A DNA stretch of 64,000 nucleotides from assembly GCF_057098645.1 (NCBI RefSeq), contig NZ_CM169472.1. One strand, 5' to 3'. Of the stretch, positions 24,001 through 27,000 are shown piece by piece (within the stretch, counting starts at the first letter, position 1; the number at the start of each line of letters is the position of its first letter). A program made the position numbers.

Positions 24001-27000
24001 TGCCGTTCAGCAGGGACTTACCGACAGTAACCCGGCGCAGCATCTGGAAGGCGTTGTCTCCTCCCCCGTAAAGAATCACTACCCCGCGTTACCGCTGGAG
24101 CGGTTGTCCGAACTGCTTGGCCGCATCGGTGACTATCAGCAGGGCCGGGAGTTAACCCGGCTGGCGGTGGTGCTGACACTGCACCTGTTCATCCGTTCCA
24201 GCGAACTGCGTTTCGCCCGCTGGAGCGAGATCGATTTCAGGCACAAAATCTGGACCATCCCCGCCACCCGCGAGGCCATCGACAAAGTTCGGTTTTCGGG
24301 GCGTGGCGCAAAAATGCGTACCCCGCATATCGTACCGCTCTCCCGCCAGGCGATTGCCCTTCTGAAACAGATACAGGAGCTTTCCGGCCATCTGGATCTG
24401 GTGTTTCCCGGCGATCATAATCCGTACAAGCCAATGAGCGAAAACACAACCAACCGGGCGCTGCGCCTGATGGGGTATGACACGAAAACTGAAATCTGCG
24501 GGCATGGACTCAAGGCAATGGCCTGTAGCGCCCTGGTGGAGTCGGACCTGTGGTCACGCGATACGGTGGAGCGGCAAATGAGCCACCAGGAGCGCAACAG
24601 CGTGCGGGCGGCATATGTGCATAAAGCAGAGCATCTGGAGGCCAGAAAGGCCATGATGCAGTGGTGGTCGGATTATCTGGATGTGTGCCGCGAGGGGTAT
24701 GTTGCGCCGTACATTTATGCCCGGCAGCATAAGGCAGCCTGAATCAGAAATAGCGTAAATCATTAAAACCGGAAAAGCAGATCCTGATTGACCGGGATCT
24801 GTTTTTTTGTATTGAGAGGTATTGTTGCTGTTTTTGTTATTATTAATTGGGAAGCACCGAAAATTATTCCAGTAGAATATTTGCAGGCGACTGCCTATTA
24901 ATAAATGCATTATTGATAGATAACTACCTTCTGTGATTTGCCCGCAAATCACAGAAGATGAAAACCTATCAATACGGGATATTTTCACGGAAATACCAAT
25001 TAATACTCCAGAATATCTCCTGACCATATACTCTGAAACCTGTAAGAACTGCATCAGATATTGAGAGACCAGATAGATGTAAGTCTGAAATTATTTTGTT
25101 TCCAATGATTTCAGGCGAAAAACCTATCAATACATCTGTTTTCAATAGGCAGCCACCTTCCGTGATTAACATGTTAATCACGGAAGGTGAAAAGCTTTCA
25201 ATAATCGATATTTCCACGGTATTACCACTTAATACATCCCAAAAAATGCGCCATAAAATACCGGACAATCTTTCCTGATACACATTATCACTGCACCAGC
25301 TATACAGAGACAAAATAATCTGCACCCGTCCTGGATAATCTGCTATCTGCGCCAGCGTCCCGCCGCTCTACCTGTTCAGGGCTGCGCCAGTTCCTGGCCC
25401 TTTAGTTTTTGGCCCTTTCAGGTCAGGCGCTGTTACCCTTATCGCCCCCTTAACCTTTATGACCCTTTCCCTTTCTGGCGCAACCAGTTTATTTGGAAAT
25501 GCTCCATGACAGTCTGCACCAGACTGTATTTTCACCACAGGATAACGATCACAAAGTGCAAAAAATAACATGAAGCACCGAAGATTCTTAATTCATATGA
25601 AGCAGGTTATTATGCCAAAAACCGTCGCAGCATTTTTATAAAATCATGAGGCATCCTGAGACCATATAATATATGTCACAGGATACGGAAAAACACAGAG
25701 AGAATTATTCAGATATAAGCCTGCACCAAAATTAATGTGATGCCCCGGTGAATTTACATTTTAAAATTTCCCCAGCCCTGTAGTATTGGTAAAAATGAAT
25801 GAAACACCTGTTATCAATTGGAATCGTTTCGAGTGATTACAGGGTAATCACTATAATATCCCGGCAAACTATATTGGTTAAGCAGGAGAATCTGATCTGT
25901 TGATATTTATTCGTCATGCTGTAACGATATTTTCACAATATAAACCCGTTCGCCCCCTGCGCCAGATCCGGAACATAGGGTACGATAAATCGCTGTCGTT
26001 ACACAGTAACCGCATTATTTTGCGCCATTCATGAACTCAGTCATTCCTCCTTCCAGCGGTAGCCGTACACCTGTTTCACCCAGCGACCGCGACCGTCGCC
26101 ATGACCCAGATCCGTCGCCGTCAGCGCCAGTGACTCCTTTTCGCTGAATCCCTGTTCCAGATAATGGCGGATCGCATCCTGCGCCCATGCATAACGCAGG
26201 GAGTGCGGGGAAAATTCGCCTGTCAGCCCCACTTTAACCGCCTGTCTGTGCCAGTGATTCATGGCTGTTTTAAGGTCGGGCTTGTCGATCAGCCTGCTAT
26301 TGCATTGTTCTGCTGCAAGTAACGCTTTTTCAAGGGCTTTCCTGACTGCGCCAGTATCCAGGACTGTCGTATGGCGGGGACGACCGCCCTTGGTGCCAAA
26401 CACCACTTTCAGCCGGTTTTCCCCGCGTTCAATGGTTTTCAGCCACGTTTTCAGCGACTGTGAACTCTGTACCGCCTCCTGCGAACGTAGCCCCATCAGC
26501 CGCGCAATCTCCAGCACTGCCGCCAGCCCTGCGTCCTGAGTGCGGGCTTTCTCCATCACCTGCTGGTAATGTTCCGGCGTGATGGCGCGGCGCGTGCCGT
26601 TGCGCGAAGCGCCTGACACCCCTAATGCCTTATTGGTCAGACGCGGATGCTCCACCACCTGCCTGCGTTCAGCCTATCTCAGCACGGTCCGCAACGCTGC
26701 CATTCCGTTTTGCAGCGTTCGTAAACCAATATCCTGCTCCAGCCGTTCCTCAATGTAGCATTCGATATGGCGAACCTTGATCTGCTGCACCCGCTGGATC
26801 TGGATATTCAGCGCCCGTAAATGTTCACTGAACCGTTTGTAATATGGATATGGTCATTCACCGTTTTGAAGCTGCCGCCCGCTTTCTTCGCCAGCGCCTT
26901 CATTTCACTGCTTAATTTACTCATGAATCCCCTGCAACATAAACAAACAGTCTCCGGCGTGTGCTGTTTGGCTGCGCCAGAACGATACCTTCACGCCGGA

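Follow-up and report, generated by a model that had tools for sequence, protein, structure and literature searches.

Palindromic modules, proposed to be passengers, and a polar box array in the spacer between an island integrase gene and a decayed mobilisation gene of Escherichia coli

What is the 1.3-kb stretch of DNA (24743-26040) that follows the P4-type integrase gene of a genomic island in an Escherichia coli chromosome of the O145:H28 type? It lies in a window of 64 kb, to the whole length of which all coordinates refer, and it holds two long palindromes in repeated units and a third, shorter one. An earlier reading of the window (hereafter, the sequence-only reading) had proposed that these palindromes belong to a structured RNA or to a set of operators for a dimeric DNA-binding protein, perhaps the Ner-like or the HigA-like protein encoded nearby. 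The comparison with related islands points elsewhere. The stretch is the convergent 3' spacer between the integrase gene and a decayed PF12835 gene in the backbone of an integrative mobilisable element; the symmetry of the palindromes is real and has been kept through evolution; and the reading that we favour, at a probability of roughly 0.4, is that they are DNA-level, dyad-symmetric passenger modules of a spacer that has been inflated in Escherichia, multiplied through unequal crossing-over, with templated correction preserving their symmetry. Three points go beyond the sequence-only reading, namely that the units are Escherichia-specific, that the next gene is an MpsA-type pseudogene and that a short core within the spacer is conserved across genera.

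A first step is to ask where this DNA occurs. The 1.3 kb are 100% identical in strain C325 and 99.9% identical in RM12581, and they were found again, at 85-100% identity, in 433 of 5426 complete E. coli genomes, in up to four copies per genome and always after an integrase at an asn tRNA gene. All 1073 places inspected, in 450 E. coli genomes, lie between the integrase gene and the mob-like gene that faces it. Since every E. coli copy has this one context, the stretch is not a dispersed repeat, and the REP/BIME, ERIC and MITE classes were dismissed because copies are not scattered at unrelated loci. Plasmids, phages and viral contigs were searched for copies and none was found: the 451-nt region of the units, the entire 1.3 kb, either palindrome and the tail described below had no plasmid or phage match even at E<=10, and a search of viral contigs for the tail pattern gave 19 chance matches and no related one. 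The same pattern in metagenomes gave 120 loci, mostly due to chance, from which about a dozen E. coli-like loci were retained.

The nature of the spacer follows from its neighbour. An intact orthologue of the mob-like gene matches Pfam PF12835 (E 1.9e-59) and, in its N-terminal part, PF12834 (E 2.9e-39). PF12835 is the signature by which relaxases of the MpsA type, the tyrosine-recombinase-like ones of SGI1-type integrative mobilisable elements, are recognised (PMC10484663; Kiss et al. 2019). A 2026 preprint reports this class, MOB_M, to be the commonest relaxase family in chromosomes, with 96% of its genes beside an integrase. In all of the 20+ loci, the mob-like gene stands beside a P4-type integrase gene. 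Judged by its domains, the gene is an MpsA-type (PF12834+PF12835), tyrosine-recombinase-like mobilisation gene, present in the window as a pseudogene, and it is this neighbour that makes the 1.3 kb the convergent spacer of an integrative mobilisable element. A relaxase function may be assigned to the protein from the PF12835 signature by way of the literature. A decayed mpsB 3' of the mob-like gene was ruled out, as other genera have only about 200 bp there and the protein already has the N-terminal PF12834.

The two long palindromes are not a product of chance. B1 is perfect at 24928-24957 (CTTCTGTGATTTGC-CC-GCAAATCACAGAAG, 14+14 bp with a 2-nt centre) and stretches to 24926-24959 when mismatches are allowed; B2 is a perfect palindrome of 36 bp at 25154-25189 (CACCTTCCGTGATTAACA|TGTTAATCACGGAAGGTG, 18+18 bp, zero spacer). 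They are the longest two perfect palindromes of the window. No other perfect palindrome in the window has arms of 13 bp or more, and none of that size arose when the window was simulated 100 times (Markov-1) or the region 2000 times; GTGATT-N8-AATCAC occurs in the window at two sites only, those in the two units, against an expectation of 0.28. Their predicted folds are strong on both strands, with z-scores of -6.4 (+) and -6.0 (-) for B1 and of -5.5 (+) and -4.3 (-) for B2. The third palindrome, at 25832-25852 (AGTGATTAC-AGG-GTAATCACT), has the same half-sites as the B type, separated by 7 or 8 nt in relatives. Although real, it is a short one (9+9 bp) without a significant fold (z -1.0 and -2.1). 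In all three cases, the sequence-only reading had placed the palindromes within a few bases of the recomputed coordinates. It had also seen the pairing of the units, and here the duplication proves to be longer than was thought: 24894-25006 and 25123-25235 share 113 nt at 73% identity without gaps, at a spacing of 229 nt, with a weaker similarity over some 80 nt more, a CTGCAYCAG box included (extension score 42 versus a shuffled mean of 25.5, reached by 5 of 500 shuffles).

Other features surround the third palindrome. Immediately 3' of it there is a perfect TATAAT (25853-25858), a transcript from which would run antisense to the 3' end of the mob-like gene. Downstream, an AGGAG (25884-25888) is followed by a TTG-started open reading frame (ORF) of 44 amino acids (aa; 25900-26034), the length of which is kept in six loci and which is frameshifted in two. 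A GTTAC-N3-GTAAC palindrome at 25998-26010 (0.05 expected in the window) recurs in relatives as GTTACGCAGTAAC, just before the stop codon of the mob-like gene.

What, then, is the element that is repeated? The comparison set consists of 17 distinct, related versions of the region from E. coli, E. albertii, E. whittamii and metagenomes (loci labelled with L-numbers). In these, the module is a perfect or near-perfect palindrome with arms of 11-18 bp, followed directly by the tail (G/A)TGAAAAnCTATCAATA. The palindrome is of one of six sequence types: A1 (CCCAAAATTATTCAC-CA-GTGAATAATTTTGGG), A2 (AAAAATATTTGG-CC-CCAAATAATTTT), A3 (CCTGAAATTATT...AATAATTTCAGG), the B1 and B2 given above, and B3 (ATTTTGATTTGCA|TGCAAATCAAAAT). 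There are two to four modules per island, and the units first noticed are a pair of A and B modules, duplicated in tandem (about 190-230 bp). The module/unit number differs among E. coli islands, from 1 to 3, the single-unit islands being L004, L006 and L015-L017. In L006, the B1 palindrome is fused to the B2 tail and the junction lies inside the TGAAAA of the shared tail, as expected of unequal homologous crossing-over. Hairpins at equivalent positions are highly variable in sequence (for example, AAAATTATTCACC|GGTGAATAATTTT versus CCTTCCGTGATTAACA|TGTTAATCACGGAAGG), and the loop of B1 varies freely (CCCG, CCTG or CCCA); TGATT...AATCA is invariant in all 17 B-type copies.

The AT-rich DNA that holds these modules (34-38% GC) is confined to Escherichia, where it is inserted between the integrase terminator and the first, degenerate CTGCRCCAG box. 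Both the palindromes and this expansion are absent from the Serratia, Klebsiella, Cedecea, Salmonella arizonae, Erwinia and Pseudocitrobacter loci; the stretch recurs next to integrases in the 433 E. coli genomes, and the units do not do so in these six genera. In five other-genus loci (L009, L010, L012, L013 and L014), the gap between the integrase and mob-like genes is only about 200 bp. Moreover, one or other of these two genes is a pseudogene in most relatives, and in the window, where the mob-like gene is dead, the palindromes are still perfect. Their absence from the short spacers, their varying number and their perfection beside a dead gene suggest that the modules are lineage-specific and probably dispensable.

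The compensating changes seen between the two stems of the window hold across the 17 B-type modules. In an ungapped MAFFT alignment of these, the central helix has 18 pairs, of which 8 have changed on both sides, and 92% of its cells are paired, compared to 31-47% in controls in which the partner was slid by 1-3 columns. There are about ten compensated events (four between B1 and B2, three or four in B3, and one each in L081, L004 and the A3 hairpin of L081) and about six uncompensated changes (in L002, L045, L005, L017 and L016), and the differences between B1 and B2 within one genome remain mirrored. Among the distinct hairpins, 7 of 19 are self-complementary through the exact centre and another 7 of 19 have a 2-nt centre. 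In L004, a double change, CATG>CGCG, has occurred at the centre of the palindrome, and the centre dinucleotide is flipped between L075 and L016 (CA versus TG), which is a footprint of palindrome inversion. An RNA hairpin cannot pair its exact centre, and selection on an RNA would therefore not keep that centre symmetric. A strand-consistent G-U pattern was looked for and not found, the wobble and mismatch cells having no strand preference. The symmetric centres, the flipped centre and the absence of a strand preference all point to DNA rather than RNA, and we infer that the palindromes are DNA-level dyad-symmetric elements and not an RNA gene. It does not follow that the pairing is under selection, as had been supposed, since the templated correction of quasi-palindromes leaves the same footprint.

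Templated mutation and correction of quasi-palindromes is an established process in E. coli, in which a hairpin or a strand switch provides the template and of which thyA contains a hotspot. The Escherichia spacer has been inflated by AT-rich DNA built of palindrome-plus-tail modules, the number of which would, on the reading favoured here, change by unequal crossing-over in the conserved tails. A point mutation in one arm would then be followed by hairpin- or strand-switch-templated correction of the quasi-palindrome, which would bring symmetry back; compensated changes, fully symmetric centres and flipped centre dinucleotides would all follow with no need for selection on a transcript. As for the modules, the spacer could do without them, and any constraint on these passengers would be weak. 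Diversity (pi), computed over 11 two-unit loci, is 0.089 at the four-fold degenerate sites of the integrase gene, 0.067 in the AT-rich region as a whole, 0.053 in the tails and 0.044 in the integrase terminator; it is 0.027 in the B1 palindrome and 0.039 in B2, figures that come from stretches of 34-36 nt only and from few independent lineages. The AT-rich region as a whole is thus close to neutral, and the palindromes are somewhat more conserved.

Several points weigh against this reading. The templated-correction step is borrowed from what is generally known of quasi-palindrome mutagenesis in E. coli and not from this locus, and the origin of the palindromes is left without explanation. Six differing hairpin sequences all abut one and the same 16-nt tail, as if structure and sequence had been designed to be recognised together, in the way of nic or recombinase sites. 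Values of pi in the palindromes that are 2-3 times lower than at the synonymous sites of the integrase gene, and lower than in some neighbouring spacers, hint at purifying selection. The sample, finally, amounts to about 17 distinct, related sequences.

The strongest rival explanation, though in our view an unlikely one, is that the B-type palindromes are sites for a dimeric DNA-binding protein, either as the lox/FRT-like core of a flanking tyrosine recombinase or as an operator for a helix-turn-helix protein of the island. Their geometry, CCTTCYGTGATT-N8-AATCACRGAAGG, is 12-8-12, that of the loxP and FRT cores is 13-8-13, and the range for tyrosine-recombinase core sites in general (inverted arms of 11-13 bp around a spacer of 6-8 bp) includes them. 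They lie between two genes of the recombinase family; TGATT...AATCA never varies among them; the third palindrome, with the same half-sites at 7 or 8 nt, overlaps positions -35 to -11 of the perfect TATAAT; and symmetry through the centre suits a DNA site better than an RNA. However, the islands of six other genera that carry both proteins lack the palindromes, and it is the CTGCRCCAG boxes, not the palindromes, that co-vary with the PF12835 gene. The core site of the integrase is the end of tRNA-Asn, which is unrelated in sequence, and, at equivalent positions, the arms of the A-type hairpins are unrelated and their spacers measure 0-2 nt. A reader protein shared by B1 and B2 would not require their differences within one genome to be mirrored. 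As for the products of recombination, the junction in L006 lies in the tail and not in the spacer of the palindrome, and among the 17 loci there is neither a junction in that spacer nor an inversion of the intervening segment.

The operator version of this explanation, in which the Ner-like or HigA-like protein would be the reader, finds no GTGATT dyad near 27.7-29.2 kb, where the promoters of both genes lie. The start of the HigA-like gene is spanned by a different, 20-nt inverted repeat (28072-28116, 95% complementary, TCTCCCGGCTTTCCGCCAGC / GCTGGTGGAAAGCCGGGAGA), which is likely to be the autoregulatory operator of HigA and is unrelated to the palindromes of the 1.3 kb. A lead based on the Ner operators of phage D108 (inverted repeats CCGTGAGCTAC) was dropped, as the geometry differs and nothing usable was found in the literature.

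Could the hairpins act in RNA after all, as read-through 3' extensions of the integrase or mob-like transcripts or as a small RNA, with a role in processing, stability or termination? We consider this quite unlikely. The folds are strong on both strands (z -4.3 to -6.5), the stems of 13-18 bp are near the length of RNase III substrates, the loop of B1 varies freely as a loop might, and the compensated changes include a G-C > G-U > A-U series (columns 47/66 in the window, L002 and L081); in addition, a position just past the integrase terminator parallels that of sib in phage lambda. Yet a covariance scan with Rfam 15 gave no meaningful match at E<=1, and none at the gathering score, in 24743-26040, nor any at E<=0.01 in the equivalent spacer of seven relatives. 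The promoter scan found no + strand promoter, and neither a convincing promoter nor a convincing terminator came out of the region. The terminator scan gave one lenient match, B1 on the - strand with the tail AGTTATCTAT, and B2 failed on both strands. Intrinsic termination by the palindromes was indeed ruled out, given that their tails are A-rich on the + strand and that the true integrase terminator, with its T run, already lies upstream of the modules; it is kept in all genera and present in all loci from L002 to L017. RNAalifold returns a bare central hairpin with 6 compensated pairs, next to a conserved tail that is not a U-tract. Flanking stems formed by the CTATCAATA/TATTGATAG boxes were examined for covariation and none was found, and CTATCAATA, which locally forms the arms of these weak stems, is not enriched in the window as a stand-alone motif (16 versus 12.7 expected). 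As a candidate for a novel structured RNA, the region thus has one helix, backed by 6-8 compensated pairs, with a centre the symmetry of which could not be selected in RNA and with wobble and mismatch cells that favour neither strand.

Another explanation, which we hold to be improbable, is that the modules work as single-stranded DNA hairpins during the conjugative transfer of the excised island, as ssi priming sites or as secondary nic/oriT-like sites made up of an inverted repeat, about 8 nt and a conserved sequence. In SGI1, the order is oriT - sgm-sRNA - mpsA - mpsB (PMC6414798, PMC9299015), and the backbone here, with its MpsA-type gene, the EFASI RNA motif and an upstream array of inverted repeat and boxes, parallels the oriT - sgm-sRNA - mpsA part of it. 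A variable hairpin with a conserved 9-16-mer at a fixed distance is a classic relaxase/HUH layout, and the palindromes would fold on either transferred strand. Against this, the modules have no similarity to plasmids, even when the palindromes and the tail served as short queries under relaxed settings, the conserved backbone has no HUH enzyme or primase, and other genera have the same backbone without the modules. Moreover, relaxases of this class should have their oriT upstream of the gene, and the modules are downstream. Upstream of EFASI and of the mob-like gene, there is a perfect 12-bp inverted repeat (GGCGTCACTTTG / CAAAGTGACGCC, 27209-27220 / 27239-27250), which is followed by three CTGCACCAG boxes with an exact period of 27 nt (27255, 27282 and 27309) and which, with them, makes up a candidate oriT-like region. 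A homologous element of inverted repeat and boxes exists in the pESI-like plasmid pN55391 of Salmonella Infantis (L138 3920-4140), where it sits in an unannotated stretch of this conjugative megaplasmid. Three origins or ends of another kind were also ruled out: an iteron array as in the crr/ori of P4 (TGTTCACC is not enriched here; P4 has 19 versus 3.4 expected), a DnaA-box origin (TTWTNCACA occurs 121 times in the window versus 129.6 expected, with no cluster in the region) and the P2/P4 cos, which is absent.

If the palindromes are passengers, what part of the spacer is conserved? The short spacers of about 200 bp hold the integrase terminator, CTGCRCCAG copies and a core in which two boxes in inverted orientation flank GGCCYTTT repeats. 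This form, seen in six other genera, is the ancestral one, made up of terminator, oriented boxes and repeats. Outside Escherichia, the core (Table 1) is the sole part of the 1.3 kb that aligns, at 79-94% identity over stretches of 31-94 nt (BLAST against L008-L014); in the five short-gap loci, the conservation is limited to 25382-25458. The core is kept in at least seven genera, with three to five GGCCYTTT repeats inside the inverted box pair, and in other genera it follows immediately on the mob-like stop codon. Some Escherichia copies of it have a compensated change, CCGG/CCGG to CCTG/CAGG.

The boxes extend beyond the spacer. There are 14 copies of CTGCRCCAG in the window versus 0.97 expected (about 14-fold), 11 of which are clustered at 25291-27657. 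They are strictly polar, with + copies to the left of EFASI and - copies to its right, and the same polarity is found in nine loci from other species and genera. Three of the boxes are inside the coding sequence of the mob-like gene and may be held by the protein sequence. On the favoured reading, the boxes and the core are more likely than the palindromes to be the functional cis-elements of the mobility module.

The boxes also coincide with the edges of variation. A segment that contains the third palindrome (25737-25941) is swapped for unrelated sequence in L015, L017 and L007, and in pairwise BLAST the breakpoints among E. coli variants are at the boxes or within about 15-20 nt of them; this coincidence is only suggestive of site-specific exchange, because conserved boxes end BLAST alignments anyway. 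The spacer of Cedecea colo (L011 6105-6662) contains a P-loop NTPase of 185 aa, flanked by an 18-bp direct repeat, TCTGCTTTTTATTTGCAC, and that of Serratia marcescens (L008 6137-6409) contains a 90-aa ORF. In the E. albertii spacer (L007, positions 738-1025, window orientation), a basic ORF of 95 aa, flanked by four GTTACGCAGTAAC palindromes, lies further downstream, in the portion that corresponds to 25525-26000 of the window. The spacer between the integrase and mob-like genes looks like an insertion hotspot. It is a highly improbable extension of this that the boxes and the PF12835 protein form a platform for site-specific segment exchange at the junction of the two genes; the cargo between the boxes would then be the AT-rich array, 25737-25941, the E. 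albertii ORF, the Cedecea NTPase and the Serratia ORF. Were it true, the 'relaxase' would also be a working recombinase and the spacer a small integron-like hotspot, in which the palindrome-plus-tail modules would act either as a cargo of this kind or as folded sites by which cargo is recognised. Sites of the integron attC type themselves were ruled out, as the hairpin ends do not have GTTRRRY boxes and the mosaic boundaries are at CTGCRCCAG boxes and not at hairpins.

Finally, it is barely credible that the region is what remains of a protein-coding gene with the repeats as an internal protein repeat, despite a RefSeq hypothetical protein across the repeat units of O145 strains (WP_180192641.1, 99 aa, 24969-25268, -), a loose similarity between the + strand translations of the two units and the real genes inserted at this spot in other genera, given that among 10 related loci there is no ORF of 30 aa or more with a constant frame and constant end points, that three local ORFs have no NCBIfam or PHROG match, that PGAP annotates nothing in the 1.3 kb in most of the 433 genomes and that a palindrome reads alike on both strands, so that the peptide similarity is a by-product of DNA identity. 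The stretch is thus gene-free and not decayed coding sequence, as the sequence-only reading had it, and WP_180192641.1 is probably a spurious gene call, since no ORF is kept across related islands and no family matches.

Table 1. Features of the spacer and its surroundings, with positions in the window
Feature	Position	Strand	Basis or remark
mtfA	upstream of tRNA-Asn
tRNA-Asn, integration site and left end of island	23243-23315	+	Rfam tRNA 72.6 bits; RefSeq annotation of identical locus
P4-type tyrosine integrase of island	23480-24742	+	ORF; NCBIfam PRK09692 E 1.5e-67; RefSeq tyrosine-type recombinase
Integrase terminator, hairpin with 12-bp arms, then T run	24773-24812	+	inverted repeat and sequence
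Escherichia-specific AT-rich expansion, four modules 'hairpin + (G/A)TGAAAAnCTATCAATA'	24813-25290		composition and module structure
Unit copy 1 of tandem duplication	24894-25085	+	113-nt repeat and extension; absent in single-unit islands L004, L006, L015-L017
Conserved tail of module B1, ATGAAAACCTATCAATA...ATATTTTCACGG...TTAATA	24958-25006	+
A-type hairpin of next module, CTGAAATTATT...AATGATTTCAG	25085-25114		compensated A>C / T>G change in L081
Unit copy 2 of tandem duplication	25123-25320	+	repeat and extension
CTGCRCCAG boxes	25291, 25347, 25382, 25514, 25957, 26346, 26972	+
GC-rich core, inverted box pair enclosing GGCCYTTT repeats	25382-25480		BLAST to L008-L014
Variable segment bounded by boxes, holding palindrome 3	25737-25941		pairwise BLAST breakpoints
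'Integrase domain-containing' pseudogene (mob-like, MpsA-type)	26041-26924	-	RefSeq 'frameshifted; internal stop'
EFASI RNA motif, between mob-like gene and upstream repeats	26979-27107	-	Rfam RF02957, 94.1 bits
Candidate oriT-like region	27209-27317	-	perfect 12-bp inverted repeat and three CTGCACCAG boxes
CTGCRCCAG boxes	27255, 27282, 27309, 27649	-
HigA-like gene	27734-28093	-
Ner/SfsB-like gene	28157-28411	-
169-aa ORF	28408-28917	-
C4 / isrK / c4-a1b1 leader RNAs	28922-29106	-
Type VI secretion genes	29205 onward

The wider gene order fits into this picture of a mobile backbone. From 26925 to 29106, there appears to be a single leftward unit made up of an immunity leader (P4/P1-type), the 169-aa ORF, the Ner/SfsB-like and HigA-like genes, EFASI and the MpsA-type gene, in which the mobilisation gene occupies the place that the alpha primase has in P4. 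The backbone from the isrK/C4 leader to the integrase gene is shared by Escherichia, Serratia, Klebsiella indica, Cedecea, Salmonella arizonae, Erwinia and Pseudocitrobacter, and EFASI is at the equivalent position in seven relatives. Elsewhere in the window, the Rfam matches are to STnc100, the sok antitoxin, two ALIL pseudoknots (frameshift sites of IS3-type insertion sequences) and DicF (3334-3506, 8822-8996, 17166-17282, 17650-17701 and 40467-40583), which point to a prophage upstream of mtfA and to insertion sequences in the island.

What does this mean for the interpretation of such loci? The palindromes themselves deserve little weight, as they look like lineage-specific passengers of a decaying island, and they carry a caution: compensated changes in a DNA palindrome do not on their own prove a structured RNA. 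The more promising biology within 24743-26040 is in the polar CTGCRCCAG array and the cross-genus core, as candidate recognition sites for chromosomal mobilisation proteins of a class that is very common but has been little characterised. The DNA sites of MOB_M relaxases are almost unknown, and CTGCRCCAG, which is polar around EFASI and conserved in seven genera or more, and which also occurs in a pESI-like plasmid, is, together with the conserved core of about 100 bp, a concrete candidate for a recognition motif.

Comparison with known systems helps to place the locus. The palindromes resemble the substrates of quasi-palindrome correction in being inverted repeats with short spacers, with changes in one arm that have their counterpart in the other and with centres that are perfect or flipped; that process, however, is a mutational one rather than an element family, and it does not account for the conserved 16-nt tail or for where the palindromes came from. 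With loxP and FRT they share inverted arms of 12-13 bp around an 8-bp spacer beside genes of the recombinase family, but several of the spacers are here themselves palindromic, the arms vary between equivalent sites, other genera with the same proteins lack the palindromes and no recombination products are seen. The sib retroregulator of lambda is likewise a long hairpin just past an integrase gene and a possible RNase III target in read-through RNA, whereas here a conserved terminator precedes the hairpins, which are several and differ in sequence. In phage P4, crr consists of two 120-bp direct repeats with inverted TGTTCACC iterons; the likeness lies in the P4-type integrase context, in two direct repeats of about 120 bp with motifs in both orientations and in a common string, GTGAATAAT..GGGTGAA, but the similarity is not significant versus shuffles, the backbone has no alpha primase and, in P4, crr and the integrase gene are on opposite sides of attP. 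The last comparison is with the mobilisation module of SGI1. The mob-like protein differs from MpsA by its extra N-terminal PF12834 and has no separate mpsB beside it, and the palindromes are downstream of its gene, unlike the oriT of SGI1, which is upstream of mpsA. The two modules are alike in that the neighbouring gene has the MpsA signature PF12835, and, between it and the upstream array of inverted repeat and boxes, the EFASI motif stands where SGI1 has its sgm-sRNA.

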